The notes under the pieces: generated by a model | What the model saw: the letters and a program-made list of their open reading frames with translations, nothing else | The model's database searches: none | Told to the model about the DNA's origin: nothing | Translations under genes and position numbers: made by a program | In this document: piece after piece, positions 6,579 to 46,226 of the stretch | Position numbering within the stretch: the stretch's first letter is position 1 | How the letters are laid out: each line of letters begins with the position of its first letter | Assembly (NCBI GenBank): GCA_963977445.1 | Contig: CAXBPH010000006.1 | Coordinates: 1 to 51,230, forward strand | From: an uncultured bacterium | GTDB lineage: Bacteria > Hydrogenedentota > Hydrogenedentia > Hydrogenedentales > JAEUWI01 | Direction: 5' to 3' | DNA length: 51,230 nt

Positions 6579-7298
6579 ATGAGCGAACTTATTGTGGTCC
6601 GCCACGGCCAGGCCTCGTTTCTTTCCGACGATTATGACCGATTATCCGAGTTGGGTAAGGTGCAATCCCAACGGCTGGGGTCCTATTGGGCCACACAGGA
6701 GCTATTGCCGACGCGGATGGTCGTAGGTCCCCGCCGTCGCCATCGGGAAACGGCCGATGCGCTGATAGCGGCCCTCGAAGCGGGTGGCCAGACGGCACCG
6801 GAGCCGATCTACGACGACCGTCTTGATGAATTCGACTGGGACGGCCTGATGGGCTATGCCAACAGCACCCTTTCCGTGGCGGAGCCGGAAATTGCGGCCT
6901 TGAAAGCGGCCTTTGAAGGCACGGATGACGTGGGTGCCAAGCGACGTACCATTCAACATTATATGGAAGGGGTCATGGCCCATTGGATAACCGGCTCTTT
7001 TCACGAAGAAGGACTGGAGACCTGGAAGGACTTCTGCAGCCGCGTCGAGGTGGCCATGCGCGTCCACACGGCGGATTCGCCCCGGGGCAGCCGCGTGGTG
7101 TTTGTAACCTCCGGTGGCGTGGCGGCGGTCACGGCGGGGCGGGTTCTCGGGGTATCGGCCGAAAAAACCGTGGGCCTTATCTGGACCCTGCGCAACAGCG
7201 CGCTCGTGGAATACCTCTATCACGGAACGCAGATTTCGCTGAGTAGTTTTAACAACGCGCCCCATCTGGATGAGAAGGCGATGTGGACCTACCGATAG
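6579..7298 (+). CDS. Histidine phosphatase (phosphoglycerate mutase-like) family protein
   Basis: N-terminal VRHGQ motif, LDEFD, VTSGG, C-terminal FNNAPHL. Confidence 0.88.
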   Translation: MSELIVVRHGQASFLSDDYDRLSELGKVQSQRLGSYWATQELLPTRMVVGPRRRHRETADALIAALEAGGQTAPEPIYDDRLDEFDWDGLMGYANSTLSVAEPEIAALKAAFEGTDDVGAKRRTIQHYMEGVMAHWITGSFHEEGLETWKDFCSRVEVAMRVHTADSPRGSRVVFVTSGGVAAVTAGRVLGVSAEKTVGLIWTLRNSALVEYLYHGTQISLSSFNNAPHLDEKAMWTYR

Positions 7299-7333
7299 AG
7301 GGTCGCCGAGTCCGTTGTTCATTTCGTCCAGAC

Positions 7334-7511
7334 AAAAAAAGAAACGCCATAACAATGGGACTCGTCATGGCGCCACTCTAGGAGGTTCACGTTTTACAAC
7401 TCAGGTAGAAAGCGCTGGGACGGCACCTTCAACCATTCAATTGTTGTAACCCGCGTAAGTTTTGACTTCCGTGTCATTCTGTCGCTTCAACATCCTTGTT
7501 TCAGCCTCGTA
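7334..7511 (-). ncRNA. Putative sigma28-dependent sRNA (copy 4 of a family); ends approximate
   Basis: Follows a sigma28 promoter; hairpins AAC-AAGGAT-GTT and TGAC-ACGGAA-GTCA (identical to copy 1); UCCC-loop hairpin; AACCTCCT anti-SD; terminator CGCCAT..ATGGCG plus T-tract. Confidence 0.7.
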
Positions 7512-7517
7512 CTAAAT

Positions 7518-7544
7518 GTATCGGCACCTCGGTGGAAAGCTTTA
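7518..7544 (-). promoter_or_regulatory. Sigma28 (FliA)-type promoter
   Basis: Minus strand reads TAAA-gctttccaccgaggt(15 nt)-GCCGATAC. Confidence 0.8.
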
Positions 7545-7630
7545 GGAGGAATCTCTGGCCATTCTGTTTTTCCGGCACGAAGATAAATGGCACCAAATCG
7601 CCTTATATTTCGAGTTGCGTAATTGAACGG

Positions 7631-8776
7631 TTACTTCGATTCCAGAAGATCGAGCTTAGACAAGATCTCTTCTATCTTGTCCAGGAACATTTTAGACTCG
7701 TAGTAGTTCACGAATGCTTTTCTCGCGTTTTCAACGATCTTCAAACGCTCGTCTTCGTGCTCTAGATAGTAGATACACTTTTCTTTCAGATCACTCAGAT
7801 CCCATTTGACCGACACATAGGTCTCGTCGGGGATAAGAATATCTGGAACCGTATCGATATGCTCTACACACGGCTTAATCAGCAGTGCGCCAAAATACAT
7901 GGCTTCGTAGTCTTTCGGTGTATATTCGCACCAACCCGACGGCGAGACAAAAATCCGGCTATTGCGCATTTCCCGATAGTAGTCGGAAAAGCCGACTTTC
8001 TTGATTGACGACACCACGTTGTAGGTACTGGGTAAGTCGTTACAAACGGCAATGGCCTTTTCCCGATGCATCTTGGTCCAACCCTTATACAGGGCTGCCC
8101 GACAATACACGTCAATCGGTTTGTCCACCTTGTTTATTTTGCGGAGGATGTCGTCACGCACCGTTCGCATCAGGGAGAATATTCTCTTGTGCTTTTTGTC
8201 CTTTGCCCACAACACGAAGGATTCCCGACCTTCCGCAAGGTAAATCAATCGTTTCCAGAGGCCAAAATTCCACCCGACGAGCAGTTTGTGATAATCCTCG
8301 GGCAAAATCTGCGACTGGAACATGTTGGTCCAGATTTCGTTGGTGATGGATTCTTCGAGACCATTCTTAACGAAGTAATCGGTGATCTGCGAACCCCCAA
8401 TGTACTTCTTCTCATAGTCTGACATGTCCCGGTTGATATATTGTTTTAAAAACAAATCAACATAGGGCACCGACTCAAATTGCATGCTCTGGTGACCATC
8501 GCCATAGTCAAAATGAACGACTTTGGCGTTGCCTTTGATCTTGTTGACCTCAATATAGAAGTCTTCCGTGGCTTCTCGGGCAAGACGATGGGGGGTATTG
8601 ATAAACAACAAATCGCCATCAAATTTTTTGATGGCGCGAATCTTTTCTTTCAGGTCGTTGGAGACTATTTCCTCGGAAGTAAAACCGAATCGTGCTTCCA
8701 GATCATCCTTGTAGTGGATGAAGGGATACATCGAACCGTTACCAAATCCCTCGGTTGACAGTATTAATGCTTTCAT
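7631..8776 (-). CDS. Glycosyltransferase (GT-B, Glyco_trans_1_2/CgeB-like C-terminus), AT-rich gene
   Basis: C-terminal SPSGWCEYTPKDYEAMYFGALLIKP and YYLEHEDERLKIVENARK; start could also be the TTG at 8785. Confidence 0.75.
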   Translation of the reverse strand: MKALILSTEGFGNGSMYPFIHYKDDLEARFGFTSEEIVSNDLKEKIRAIKKFDGDLLFINTPHRLAREATEDFYIEVNKIKGNAKVVHFDYGDGHQSMQFESVPYVDLFLKQYINRDMSDYEKKYIGGSQITDYFVKNGLEESITNEIWTNMFQSQILPEDYHKLLVGWNFGLWKRLIYLAEGRESFVLWAKDKKHKRIFSLMRTVRDDILRKINKVDKPIDVYCRAALYKGWTKMHREKAIAVCNDLPSTYNVVSSIKKVGFSDYYREMRNSRIFVSPSGWCEYTPKDYEAMYFGALLIKPCVEHIDTVPDILIPDETYVSVKWDLSDLKEKCIYYLEHEDERLKIVENARKAFVNYYESKMFLDKIEEILSKLDLLESK

Positions 8777-9135
8777 AGTTTCCAATCACCTGAGTTTGTC
8801 CCATGAGGGCTGACTTGTAAAATTGACCAATCGCCAAAGATTAACCACACCCGGTGCGGCTGGTCCCATAAGTGGCCCGCTTACTCCCCGACTTGTCAAG
8901 GCAGTAACCTGAAGCTGCGTTGTTTCAGGAATGAGCGCCTGTGCTTGCACGGTCACGCACCCGAAATTTAAACGCCGTTCCACCATGCTGATTTGGCGAT
9001 AGACTACTAAGACAAAGCGTATTCATTGTATCCGAAGGTCTTCTGCTATTCAAACCATCAAATGGGCCACAACGCAGATTATTGAACGACCGATAACCGC
9101 TTGATACAATGTCACACCGACTGAAGGGATACGTT

Positions 9136-42418: not shown

Positions 42419-43012
42419 ATGAGTGACTATAAACCGAGTATCCTTGCCTTCGCCGGGAGCACACGCACCAACTCACTAAATAAAAAACTCGCCCGTGCGG
42501 CCGCTGCCGGTGCCGAAGCGGCGGGGGCCTCCGCAACCTTCATCGATCTCAGAGACTATCCCCTGCCACTCTTTGATGAAGATCTGGAACGTGAAGAAGG
42601 TCTACCAGAAAACGCGGTCAAGTTACGCGAACTTTTTCTCCAGCATGATGGGCTGATTATCGCATCACCTGAATACAATGGGTCAATCAGCGCCGTATTA
42701 AAAAATACGATCGATTGGCTCAGTCGTCGTCAAGGAGACGAGGCACCCCAAATCTGCTTTAAAGAAAAGGTCGCCCTCTTACTTGCAGCGTCACCAAGTG
42801 GACTCGGCGGACTTCGGGGACTGCGGCATCTTACTACCCTGCTCCATGGTATTCAGGTCATCGTGCTACCAGAGCAAAAGGCCATTCCTGCGGCCCATAC
42901 ACTATTCGATGACTCCGGTATCGCCGATGAAAAATTGAAGGGTGATGTGGAACGACTCAGTGCGCGTCTTGTAGAAATGACAACGCGTATCCACGGAAAA
43001 CAAACACGCTAA
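42419..43012 (+). CDS. NADPH-dependent FMN reductase (ChrR/SsuE-like)
   Basis: GSTRTNSLN, SPEYNGSISAVLKNTIDWLSR. Confidence 0.92.
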   Translation: MSDYKPSILAFAGSTRTNSLNKKLARAAAAGAEAAGASATFIDLRDYPLPLFDEDLEREEGLPENAVKLRELFLQHDGLIIASPEYNGSISAVLKNTIDWLSRRQGDEAPQICFKEKVALLLAASPSGLGGLRGLRHLTTLLHGIQVIVLPEQKAIPAAHTLFDDSGIADEKLKGDVERLSARLVEMTTRIHGKQTR

Positions 43013-43036
43013 AGTCCCTGCGCCCTGTGCCGATAA
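43010..43036 (+). promoter_or_regulatory. Sigma28 (FliA)-type promoter 1
   Basis: TAAA-gtccctgcgccctgt(15)-GCCGATAA; the -35 box overlaps the upstream stop codon. Confidence 0.85.
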
Positions 43037-43042
43037 GTACTA

Positions 43043-43225
43043 GCAGAGGCCAAGACACGGAGGTCGAGGCGACAAAGTGACACGGAAGTCAACGGAGGAG
43101 GCGGTAGAGGCTAGATAACTCGTCGGGTGTCATCCCCAACACCAACGCGATCGACGTTTTGTCCCATAGTCTTTCCATCCATGAGAGGCGCCATAGCAAC
43201 TTTGTTGTGGCGTTTTTCTCTTTTT
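43043..43225 (+). ncRNA. Putative sigma28-dependent sRNA copy 1 (~180 nt); ends approximate
   Basis: GAC-ACGGAG-GTC and TGAC-ACGGAA-GTCA hairpins, GGTGT-catcccca-ACACC, tract complementary to flagellin-2 RBS/start, terminator 43188-43225. Confidence 0.75.
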
Positions 43226-43303
43226 ATCGCCACCCGCCAATCCAACGCGCCCCCACCCTGAAACCGCACAATTCATGTCTCCGACATAATTTTGTCTTCT
43301 GAC

Positions 43304-43330
43304 TAAAGTATCCCGGCGGGTTGCCGATAC
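43304..43330 (+). promoter_or_regulatory. Sigma28 (FliA)-type promoter 2
   Basis: TAAA-gtatcccggcgggtt(15)-GCCGATAC. Confidence 0.82.
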
Positions 43331-43336
43331 ATTCAG

Positions 43337-43505
43337 TACAAGGCGGCGACACGGAGGTCAACGCCAGCGCGACATGGATGTCATCTGCTACATAGCCTGG
43401 TTTCAAACTCACAGGGTGGTCAATCCCACCGCCTGCTATTGCGAGTTTCCCCAGGGCCTTACCTCCGAAGCGCGTTGCAGCCCTGTTGCAACGCGTTTCG
43501 AATTT
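43337..43505 (+). ncRNA. Putative sigma28-dependent sRNA copy 2 (~165-185 nt); ends approximate
   Basis: GAC-ACGGAG-GTC and GAC-ATGGAT-GTC hairpins, GGTGG-tcaatc-CCACC, CTTACCTCC anti-SD, hairpin 43467-43499. Confidence 0.72.
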
Positions 43506-43522: not shown

Positions 43523-43549
43523 TAAAGTCTTCCCCACACCCGCCGATAA
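43523..43549 (+). promoter_or_regulatory. Sigma28 (FliA)-type promoter 3
   Basis: TAAA-gtcttccccacaccc(15)-GCCGATAA. Confidence 0.85.
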
Positions 43550-43555
43550 GACCCC

Positions 43556-43688
43556 TATATAGAGTCAGAATTGGCACGTACCCGTACGAGAACTGGGGTG
43601 TCTATCCCAACACCTTAACCAGTCGCTAATCTCTGCTTCTTATCTCCTCGATTGCGCCATGACCTCGGTCATTGGCGCATTCTTTTTT
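43556..43688 (+). ncRNA. Putative sigma28-dependent sRNA copy 3 (~130 nt, no GGA hairpins); ends approximate
   Basis: GGTGT-ctatccca-ACACC hairpin, TATCTCCT anti-SD, terminator TGCGCCATGACC/GGTCATTGGCGCA plus T-tract. Confidence 0.68.
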
Positions 43689-43956
43689 GGGGACTGCACC
43701 GGCCGAATGGATGCCACTGAAGCCTCGTTGAACACGTGGTAAACGGGCGTCGTCCTGCATGAAACAACGATGGCGACCGCCGGGGCCGTCCCCCTGAGGG
43801 AAATCACACGCTGGCAGGCGTCATACCCCCTAAGGGGAAATGGCACTCTGGGGGAAACAGCCCCGACTGTCTTCTCGTCCTGCCCTGCGGTGCCAACATA
43901 AGCCAACCACGGGGTTTGTGGCGCTGGGTGATAATGGCCACGTCGGTGCAGTCCCC
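43689..43956. repeat. MITE/REP-like element, same family as 30646-30908
   Basis: GGGGACTGCACCGGC and GTCGGTGCAGTCCCC ends with the same internal arms. Confidence 0.85.
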
Positions 43957-44930: not shown

Positions 44931-44957
44931 TAAAGTTCGGGCTAAAGTTGCCGATAA
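44931..44957 (+). promoter_or_regulatory. Sigma28 (FliA)-type promoter of the flagellin locus
   Basis: TAAA-gttcgggctaaagtt(15)-GCCGATAA upstream of flagellin 1. Confidence 0.88.
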
Positions 44958-44963
44958 ATACTG

Positions 44964-45410
44964 CAGGTAAGCCGAAACAGGACTTATTCACTGAAAAATT
45001 GAAGCGAATACGTGAGACCCAGGGACGGGTCTCTGCAACATCATGGAGGATGGCGCAACAGCGCGGGCTAAGCACCCGCATGACGGCCTCGTGGCCCGAC
45101 TATGACAATTGAATCATGTTGATCGAAAACTTCGGTTTTTGGCAAGGAAAGACGGCAGGATGCCTGAGAACCTTGCCACAAGGAAACGCCGTGGTGACCA
45201 CAATGCAACCGGGCACGGGACATGCCCCACCGCAGCAGGGTTATCACCGCATCAATACAATGGGACCAATCGGCACCATGTAGGAGCCGATTTCTGAGAC
45301 AGCCACTCATGGGACGAAGGGCTTCCGCACAAGCGGGAGCCATTCAAGGGGGGTTGCCTCGGAGGTAGCGCAAGGACGCGCTATACCAACCACTCACGGA
45401 GGAATACATC
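44964..45410 (+). promoter_or_regulatory. Long GGA-rich 5' leader with candidate CsrA sites
   Basis: About 16 GGA by manual count, several in hairpin loops (GAGACCC-AGGGAC-GGGTCTC; TAGCGC-AAGGAC-GCGCTA). Confidence 0.6.
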
Positions 45411-46226
45411 ATGGGACTTCGAATCAACACCAACGTAGCAGCGCTCAATACTGCCCGTGTTCTGAAACGGTCTACCAGTTCACTCAACAAGTCGCTGGAA
45501 CGCCTTTCCAGTGGTCTTCGGATTAACCGCGCGGCGGATGACGCGGCCGGTCTGGCCATCGCTGAGGGTTTTAACTCGGTGGTACGCGGGACCCAGGTCG
45601 CACAGCGCAATGCGCAGGATGGCATCAGTCTGGTGCAAACTGCGGAAGGCGCGCTGAGCGAAACGACCAATATATTGCAGCGAATTCGTGAACTGTCTGT
45701 TCAGGCAGCGAACGGAACGCAAAGTACGGCCAACCGACTCTCGTTGGATACCGAAGTAGATCAACTGTTAGCTCAAATCGATGACATCGCGTTTGACACC
45801 GAATTTAATGGTGTGCGTGTATTGAGTTCGAATACGTCATTGACCTTGCAGACAGGCGCTTTTCAAGGGCAGACCCTGTCGATCTTGCTGACCTCGGCCA
45901 CCCAGGGACAAATTGGTGTGTCGGTAGTCAATCTGCAGACGACCGCCGGTGCCGTAAGCGCGCTGAGCACGGTAGACGCCGCGTTGCGCTCCGTTAATAC
46001 CCTTCGGAGCACGCTGGGTGCCTTTCAGAACCGACTCGAGTTTACGATTAGTACCCTGGCTATCCAGGAAGAAAACTCAGCCGCCTCAGAAAGCGCTATT
46101 CGCGATGCCGACATTGCACAGGAAACGATTCGTTTTACACGAAATCAGATTCTGGTCAGCGCAGGAACATCGATTCTGGCCCAGGCCAACATTGTGCCCC
46201 AAACGGCACTCCAGTTGCTGGGTTAA
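45411..46226 (+). CDS. fliC: Flagellin 1 (short, D0/D1 only)
   Basis: RINTN, LERLSSGLRINRAADDAAGLAIAE, LQRIREL, IRDADIA, LAQAN. Confidence 0.95.
   Translation: MGLRINTNVAALNTARVLKRSTSSLNKSLERLSSGLRINRAADDAAGLAIAEGFNSVVRGTQVAQRNAQDGISLVQTAEGALSETTNILQRIRELSVQAANGTQSTANRLSLDTEVDQLLAQIDDIAFDTEFNGVRVLSSNTSLTLQTGAFQGQTLSILLTSATQGQIGVSVVNLQTTAGAVSALSTVDAALRSVNTLRSTLGAFQNRLEFTISTLAIQEENSAASESAIRDADIAQETIRFTRNQILVSAGTSILAQANIVPQTALQLLG

Follow-up and report, generated by a model that had tools for sequence, protein, structure and literature searches.

A small RNA gene with a sigma-28-type promoter in Hydrogenedentota is a candidate CsrA decoy resembling the flagellin leader

The window analyzed in this study, a stretch of 51,230 nucleotides from an uncultured member of the Hydrogenedentota, contains a small RNA gene, c4, which combines a sigma-28 (FliA)-type promoter, two 5' hairpins resembling CsrA-binding sites, and a 3' part with complementarity to the translation starts of flagellin genes. 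c4 is a real, conserved gene for a non-coding RNA of ~177 nt, predicted to be transcribed on its own, and we see an even chance that this RNA serves as a CsrA decoy which is driven by sigma-28, imitates the flagellin leader, and has an antisense module in addition. c4 would be made from its sigma-28 promoter late in flagellar assembly, alongside the flagellin mRNAs. Its 5' hairpins, which appear to copy the pair of CsrA sites found in flagellin leaders of this phylum, would be bound by one CsrA dimer, and c4 would so draw CsrA off the flagellin mRNAs and help to release flagellin translation, as an RNA antagonist of CsrA beside the protein antagonist FliW. The two GUCCCA loops and the CCUCC tract, complementary to the Shine-Dalgarno (SD) box and to AUG-GGA-C, probably add a direct contact with the flagellin leaders. 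The features of c4, of its paralogues, and of a candidate partner are listed in Table 1.

Table 1 Features of the c4 gene, its three paralogues, and the flagellin-1 start region in the window.
Feature	Positions	Strand	Remarks
c4 sRNA gene	7334-7544	-	Free-standing, ~177 nt, non-coding; sigma-28 promoter and intrinsic terminator
c4 sigma-28 (FliA)-type promoter, TAAA-N15-GCCGATA	7519-7544	-	TAAA 7544-7541, GCCGATA 7525-7519
c4 5' stem GCU/AGC around hairpin 1 (AACA-AGGA-UGUU)	7484-7505	-	CsrA-type site, GGA 7495-7493
c4 hairpin 2 (GAC-ACGGAA-GUC)	7464-7475	-	Second CsrA-type site, GGA 7470-7468
c4 long middle hairpin	7388-7455	-	Predicted fold; apical loop GUCCCA at 7421-7416
c4 anti-SD tract AACCTCCT (as RNA AACCUCCU)	7380-7387	-	Directly 5' of the terminator
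c4 intrinsic terminator	7334-7374	-	13-bp stem 7374-7343, 6-nt loop GUCCCA 7361-7356, T tail
Paralogue c1	43010-43226	+	Sigma-28 promoter, two GGA hairpins, loop CAUCCCCA, tract GUCCCAUAGUCUUUCCAUCC, terminator
Paralogue c2	43304-43505	+	Architecture as in c1
Paralogue c3	43523-43690	+	Sigma-28 promoter and 3' modules, without GGA hairpins
Flagellin-1 translation start region	45340-45420	+	GGA hairpin GCGCAAGGACGCGC, SD box CCACUCACGGAGGA, start AUGGGACU; candidate partner

When the sequence was re-read, every element quoted for this stretch of the minus strand by the first-pass annotation, a reading of the bare sequence that preceded this analysis, was present at its place. The sigma-28 promoter that it had described as TAAA-N15 conforms to the properly spaced consensus TAAA-N15-GCCGATAA, and the genome encodes fliA. 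The pattern TAAA-N14-16-GCCGATA occurs at five sites in the window, compared to 0.03 expected, and none of 100 shuffled sequences reached five. The four sites other than that of c4 head c1 (43010), c2 (43304), c3 (43523), and the leader of flagellin-1 (44931). No sigma-70-like promoter was predicted within positions 7000-7900. The transcript, which would depend on sigma-28 in the cell, probably starts near position 7512. The long hairpin with its GTCCCA loop, the anti-SD tract, and the terminator of the annotation were likewise all found. The predicted fold has an energy of -57.4 kcal/mol (z = -3.1), which was equaled by none of 200 shuffled sequences.

A same-strand glycosyltransferase ORF ends 87 nt upstream of c4. 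This arrangement would fit a c4 that is no gene of its own and represents a piece of a neighbor's 3' UTR or leader, a decaying duplicate, or a chance match. However, the ORF lies between c4 and rmlD in this genome only and had no match in any of the 13 loci of relatives that were searched. The position of the RNA is conserved: with its own promoter, it is divergent from rmlD in seven of the eight other loci of the genus and in one genome of another family. Moreover, the conserved promoter and terminator are c4's own, and the RNA is conserved in 82 genomes. On the same strand c4 ends at the terminator (7374-7343) and is followed by no gene. The next ORF on this strand matches no family and overlaps with a genuine gene of the opposite strand, and the next real gene past c4 is a convergent histidine phosphatase. 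A non-independent origin is thus already contradicted by these observations, and we regard it as highly improbable. A small-peptide function was also considered for c4 and was rejected, because the sole small frame is broken by a 1-nt indel between orthologues of the genus.

The 7.1-Mb genome contains exactly four copies of the family as detected by nhmmer (E ≤ 1.5e-20; the next match had E = 0.9), and c4 has orthologues in all eight other genomes of the genus, with 69-88% identity (BLAST). These results bear out the earlier description of c4 as a fourth, dispersed paralogue of a family of sRNAs with sigma-28 promoters. The remaining copies c1-c3 form three tandem units at 43.0-43.7 kb. Copy c3 consists of the promoter, a C-rich loop, a CU-rich tract, and the terminator; that it keeps the 3' half without any GGA hairpin is an observation which speaks against a decoy role. 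The 5' block of c4 can be aligned with that of c1, with AACA/UGUU instead of GAC/GUC around a retained A-N-GGA loop. The compensatory stem changes which had been proposed from this comparison recur beyond these two copies: among 46 distinct members of the family the respective pair is G-C in 36 and A-U in nine.

In an alignment of the nine genomes of the genus, the -35 and -10 elements of the promoter are invariant and the spacer is variable. The GGA hairpins and the GUCCCA loops, two of each, are also invariant, as are ACGAGUCCCAUUGU in the terminator and a stretch of 14 nt around its loop, and the CCUCC tract is present in all nine orthologues at slightly shifted alignment columns. Nine of the 42 predicted base pairs of c4 are compensated at this level, and the middle stem changes by compensated pairs while its loop remains constant. 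A covariance model (R1) was built from the nine c4 RNAs of the genus, and is therefore biased toward c4-like members; it was used in all wide searches, and the stricter filters applied in the large searches lose weak matches. With R1 the family was found in all 15 genomes searched within the taxonomic family, including paralogues and their orthologues, and in 82 of 135 genomes and 45 of 66 genera of the phylum (Candidatus Hydrogenedentota by record names). Across 47 aligned members, 94.1% of the cells are paired compared to 75.0% in shuffled alignments, and double changes occur in 31 of 38 pairs; none of 500 shuffles scored as high, with the caveat that the alignment had been fitted to the model. 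Slid controls of this alignment gave at most 48.2% paired cells. The promoter pattern T[AC]AA-N15-19-CGATA precedes 44 of the 47 members, compared to 34 of 20,000 random windows; among the three members without a match, one is truncated where its contig ends, and another has TTAA instead of TAAA. In c4-like RNAs of other families within the phylum, a UCCCA motif is again found in the terminator loop, on stems that differ. The covariation in homologues supports the view, already put forward in the first-pass annotation, that these sRNAs are a family under structural selection.

Among named records, members of the family were found at seven loci of Candidatus Hydrogenedentota and at six loci labeled Nitrospirales or Nitrospiraceae. 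A spread into a second phylum was rejected: the places in the six records with these labels recurred within the order of the window's own genome, to which we assign the records. Rfam yielded no match at gathering score in the window and, over positions 7300-7560, no Csr or Rsm family even at E ≤ 10. The weak matches to Hammerhead_1, AbsR25, and ctRNA_pGA1 were dismissed, with 16-20 bits being far under the respective thresholds.

The genome encodes a fliW-csrA operon, and its CsrA, of 73 aa, is of the FliW type. The closest solved chains are 1t3o and 5dmb, which we take to be the Bacillus CsrA and the Geobacillus CsrA-FliW complex, respectively. No match to PF17209 (hfq) was found in the genome, which is 94% complete. 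Within the phylum, csrA was detected in 104 and flagellin in 105 of the 135 genomes. Of the 82 sRNA-positive genomes, 81 encode flagellin (the exception is 80% complete) and 76 encode csrA, and the sRNA was found in only one of the 30 genomes that lack a flagellin match. One taxonomic family has lost all three, with the sRNA in two, csrA in one, and flagellin in two of its 23 genomes. This distribution ties the sRNA to the flagellar regulon and not specifically to CsrA; such co-occurrence counts do not separate a linkage to csrA from one to the flagellar regulon as a whole, nor do related genomes count as independent samples. Some of the 28 genomes with csrA but no R1 match may be misses of the model.

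The first-pass annotation had described the 5' hairpins by their ANGGA loops. In sequence they look like a matched pair of CsrA-type sites, a feature that this description had not recognized. Both hairpins present ACA-N-GGA-N-GU, the motif published for high-affinity CsrA binding, with the GGA motifs 25 nt apart. The two sites are ACAAGGAUGU and, in hairpin 2, ACACGGAAGU, on stems of 3-4 bp. According to passages of PMC7652899, the SELEX consensus of CsrA is RUACARGGAUGU, with an invariant ACA and GGA and an almost invariant GU; the GGA of the selected ligands mostly resides in the loop of a hairpin of at most 4 bp, with AC/GU being paired in most of them. Hairpin 1 of c4 (AAACAAGGAUGU) matches this consensus at 11 of 12 positions, and the c4 sites share its ACA, GGA, and GU cores as well as the hexaloop on a short stem. 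The 7.1-Mb genome contains 152 single ACANGGANGT sites, and pairs within 5-45 nt occur only three times genome-wide, in c1, c2, and c4, compared to 0.07 expected. The 25-nt spacing suits one CsrA dimer, and since each RNA has only two GGA sites, c4 would bind at most one.

The same arrangement is found in front of the flagellin genes. Flagellin-1, the first of three tandem flagellin genes, has a leader of ~455 nt, and the flagellin leaders of this genome share with 62 flagellin starts of the phylum (30 loci) a common layout of GGA hairpin, CACUCA(C/U)GGAGGA box, and AUG-GGA-C. The octamer CACGGAGG in the hairpin loop of the sRNA is identical to the flagellin SD box CACGGAGG. Given the shared layout and octamer, the 5' module resembles the pair of CsrA sites of the leader, copied without the gene.

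The pair of GGA motifs is the most invariant part of the RNA and was retained in every long or short variant seen except the c3-type copies. Family variants of 115 nt retain the promoter, the GGA pair, and the terminator, and have lost the UCCCA loops. The modules are thus separable: c3 has the antisense module only, the 115-nt variants the decoy module only, and c4 has both. Outside the phylum, a Hydrogenispora-labeled genome with fliW encodes an unrelated RNA of ~70 nt in which a sigma-28 promoter is followed by nothing but two hairpins of this kind and a terminator; metagenome contigs contained this minimal RNA in three identical copies and one variant. When metagenomes were scanned for pairs of CsrA sites behind a sigma-28 -10 element, 54 of the 80 examined loci matched R1. 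The other 26 loci include seven flagellin leaders, two csrA leaders, the four minimal RNAs, and two further multi-GGA RNA-like loci.

The loops could also serve another purpose. c4 might be a structured RNA which binds neither CsrA nor flagellin mRNAs but some other factor, such as another flagellar protein or RNA, or which forms kissing contacts between GGA and UCCCA loops, either within the RNA or between paralogues. The UCC of the C-rich loops is complementary to the GGA of the 5' loops, the minimum-energy fold of c4 pairs the 5' GAGG with CCUC, and the UCCCA loop motifs are conserved while their stems vary, as would be expected of a specific loop ligand. We consider this unlikely, since the CsrA consensus is matched by the 5' sites not only in sequence but also in loop size, stem length, and spacing, and no result points to an alternative binding protein.

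The 3' half of c4 provides the main alternative to a CsrA decoy. c4 may mainly be an antisense RNA whose CCUCC tract and GUCCCA(U) loops pair with the flagellin SD box and AUG-GGA-C and block or tune translation, which would create a sigma-28-driven negative loop; the GGA hairpins would then be a 5' stabilizer or a dock for CsrA as matchmaker. We hold this to be possible, though it receives clearly the smaller share of our confidence. The CCUCC tract of c4 and the following GAGUGG are complementary to the flagellin box CCACUC-NN-GGAGG. The terminator-loop sequence AGTCCCAT (7362-7355) is, as had been noted at first pass, exactly complementary to the start sequence ATGGGACT of flagellins 1 and 2, and AGUCCCAU of the terminator complements the flagellin start AUGGGACU. 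Short segments of the sRNAs were ranked by duplex energy against the 3701 SD-bearing start regions of this genome. The start of flagellin 2 ranked first of all 3701 regions for the 3' tract of c1 (-35.7 kcal/mol), and flagellin 1 ranked 31st; flagellin 3 ranked 23rd for the 3' tract of c3, a copy which carries this module without GGA hairpins. For the 3' tract of c4, the ranks were 43 for flagellin 1, 93 for the C24 flagellin, 149 for flagellin 3, 161 for flagellin 2, and 1315 for the C195 flagellin. Support for the antisense function is accordingly strongest in c1 and weakest in c4. The first-pass annotation had proposed that the target of the anti-SD tract of c4 may lie outside the window. 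Its assignment of the tract as anti-SD agrees with the complementarity to flagellin starts at the family level, but these starts lie inside the window, and the fit of c4 to the flagellins of its own genome is only moderate.

At the level of the family, perfect complements of at least 12 nt to the pooled 65 flagellin start regions were found in 19 of 47 members and in none of 47 reversed controls, with median lengths of the perfect complement of 10 and 8, respectively. The complement is situated in the pre-terminator tract or, in all nine c4-type RNAs, in the terminator loop. The flagellin starts themselves also favor particular sequences: of 62 starts, 43 have GGA as codon 2 and 41 contain ATGGGAC, even though GGA is the rarest glycine codon of the genome (5828 of 43,057). 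ATGGGAC occurs in only seven of the 3701 start regions, three of which are flagellins. This shows selection at the RNA level on the flagellin start; a CsrA site, pairing with UCCCAU, or the two together could lie behind it, and the GGA bias is explained equally well by CsrA binding at the start codon and by antisense pairing. A role of CsrA as matchmaker would be in line with the lack of a detected Hfq, and such a role has a precedent in B. subtilis, where CsrA can promote the pairing of an sRNA with an mRNA (PMC6546359).

Several results argue against antisense pairing as the main function of c4. The best complements of the c4-type RNAs, including the 12-nt matches, are to flagellins of other genomes, whereas the contiguous match of c4 to the flagellins of its own genome, AUGGGACU, is 8 nt long (9 nt with a G-U pair). 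The two loop segments of c4 ranked between 175 and 3143 of 3701 for the five flagellins. Full-length RNAduplex scans of c4, c1, and c3 against the 3701 start regions yielded long, loop-ridden duplexes and did not single out the flagellins. Longer conserved targets of the invariant terminator loop of c4, searched in the genus with up to two mismatches, showed no excess over the reversed control. Among the matches listed, the perfect complements of the terminator loop were c4 itself in five genomes and one place in a genome with 6% contamination. In addition, the complementary tract is partly buried in the terminator stem, and the short variants of the family lose the UCCCA loops but retain the GGA pair. 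Targets specific to c4 other than flagellins were also sought, and these candidates were rejected: the top-ranked ones were unrelated genes without a common theme. It should be kept in view that antisense activity may dominate in the cell, and that pairing at the SD would repress flagellin translation and not release it, contrary to what is expected of a decoy.

The CsrA decoy favored here has its closest counterparts in the leaders of flaA in C. jejuni and hag in B. subtilis. As described in PMC4894983, a single CsrA dimer binds the flaA leader, whose two GGA hexaloops lie 21 nt from each other, and the leader titrates CsrA. Like these leaders, as far as they are portrayed in parts of PMC4894983 and PMC7652899, c4 has a sigma-28/sigma-D promoter and two GGA hairpins ~20-25 nt apart, belongs to a FliW-CsrA network, and is proposed to titrate CsrA. 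Unlike them, it has no coding sequence and ends in a terminator ~95 nt past the second site, and it appears as a free-standing copy of the leader sites joined to a module that is antisense to the leader. In a leader, the second CsrA site overlaps the SD of a downstream ORF; c4 has no such ORF and is therefore not a leader.

c4 also resembles CsrB, CsrC, and RsmX/Y/Z in being non-coding, in its intrinsic terminator and A-N-GGA hairpin loops, in having multiple paralogues, and in its predicted competition for CsrA. It differs from these RNAs, which have 5-22 GGA sites, by possessing two, a number at the low end for this class, and it has a sigma-28 promoter in place of the GacA/UvrY-dependent transcription of Csr/Rsm sRNAs, a distinction based on promoter type. 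Homology to this class is likewise missing, as no Rfam model matches c4. With two GGA sites per RNA, far fewer than in CsrB or RsmZ, the capacity of c4 would be low, an observation that weighs against a decoy. In the sections of PMC7652899 and PMC4894983 that address their distribution, fliW is anticorrelated with Csr sRNAs and the FliW-bearing Campylobacter and Helicobacter are reported without such sRNAs; the description of FliW-type systems there as being without RNA antagonists is a further observation against a decoy. The host of c4 has FliW and also differs in lineage (Hydrogenedentota by record names).

FliX, MotR, UhpU, and FlgO of E. coli are sigma-28-dependent flagellar sRNAs. To our knowledge, such sRNAs of C. 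jejuni and E. coli work through base pairing or as sponges of another sRNA, and none has been described as a CsrA decoy. A FliA-dependent sRNA of C. jejuni is documented in PMC11187230. c4 is similar to the C. jejuni and E. coli RNAs in being a small RNA that would be produced with the late flagellar genes, where those RNAs feed back on flagellar expression, but shows no sequence or structure homology to them that Rfam detects. A further point of comparison is McaS of E. coli, a dual-function sRNA that is Hfq-dependent and not under sigma-28 control. c4 resembles McaS in uniting CsrA-type GGA sites and antisense elements in one small RNA. In contrast to McaS, it resides in a genome without a detected Hfq, and one of its two modules mimics an mRNA leader to which the other is antisense. 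That sRNAs which both base-pair and bind CsrA exist as a class is mentioned in PMC4894983. A search of a limited literature collection retrieved no description of a CsrA-binding sRNA dependent on sigma-28/SigD and no sRNA from Hydrogenedentes. We propose that c4 works like the flaA and hag leader titrators and like the Csr/Rsm decoys while belonging to neither class.

Control of CsrA is usually described in two exclusive forms, with decoy sRNAs in Gammaproteobacteria and FliW in most other flagellated bacteria. We know of no RNA titrator in FliW systems other than the flagellin mRNA leader. A more far-reaching version of our proposal, which we consider rather unlikely, sees in c4 a two-faced regulator of one mRNA class: the 5' half would mimic the flagellin leader and the 3' half would be antisense to the same leader, and therefore also to its own 5' half, so that the occupancy by CsrA would decide whether the antisense half is free. 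CsrA, and not Hfq, would be the matchmaker in a phylum without Hfq, and, in view of the ~70-nt minimal RNA of the Hydrogenispora-labeled genome, sigma-28-driven CsrA decoys would exist in at least two phyla with FliW. If true, this would overturn the textbook split between "sRNA-antagonized" and "FliW-antagonized" CsrA systems.

A decoy of the CsrA type, as favored here for c4, would be unexpected in bacteria thought to control CsrA only via FliW. If this reading is correct, the FliW-CsrA-flagellin checkpoint would gain a layer of RNA control, formed by a conserved family of leader mimics that occur in several copies, stand free, and are driven by the flagellar sigma factor in genomes with fliW-csrA, and c4 would show how a decoy sRNA can originate by duplication of a target leader without its gene. 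The c4 family is a concrete candidate for a first riboregulator of this uncultured phylum, with parts that are separable.

Among the paralogues of the sRNA gene c4 in the window, c3 (see table) is, as read from its sequence, a natural variant that would bear the antisense module alone. Outside the phylum, putative RNAs of about 70 nt with a minimal layout were found at L045, a locus of a Hydrogenispora-labelled genome in which fliW is present, and with the same layout in four metagenome contigs (L208, L231, L262 and L271). A tRNA-like stretch lies immediately downstream of this two-hairpin RNA, which may represent an independent minimal CsrA decoy.

Coordinates, strands and composition of the features described
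Feature	Location	Strand	Remarks
c3	window 43523-43690	+	both GGA hairpins absent; C-rich loop, CU-rich tract and terminator retained
~70-nt RNA	L045:365-462	+	sigma-28 promoter, two CsrA-type hairpins and terminator, nothing else
Glycosyltransferase-like ORF	window 7631-8785	-	between c4 and rmlD, in the window's genome only
Flagellin 1 promoter and leader	window 44931-45410	+	own sigma-28 promoter; leader ~455 nt
208-aa ORF	L002:590-1216	-	next after csrA within the fliW-csrA operon of the window's genome

Two further metagenome contigs carry multiple GGA motifs. In L259, a sigma-28-type -10 element is followed by a repeated unit with two ACACGGA(G/A)GU hairpins per unit, and these repeated units resemble CsrB; L242 contains four GGA motifs and a terminator. 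In the metagenome contigs L222 and L278, a csrA-like ORF is directly preceded by a pair of CsrA-type sites together with a sigma-28-type -10 element, a layout which suggests a self-repressed, sigma-28-driven csrA in some lineage.

The gene c4 is directly divergent from rmlD in seven of the eight loci of the genus. The intervening glycosyltransferase-like ORF of the window had no match among the relatives' c4 loci searched.

Across the flagellin loci of the phylum (L329-L358), codon 2 is GGA at 43 of 62 starts and GGC at none, in contrast to the glycine codons of the window's genome, of which GGC is the most and GGA the least frequent. The long flagellin 1 leader is also conserved in two other genomes of the genus and contains five or more conserved copies of the motif GGGAC (AGGGAC, CGGGAC, UGGGAC twice, and that at the start codon). 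These motifs could serve either as additional CsrA sites or as places where the sRNAs pair through their GUCCCA loops.
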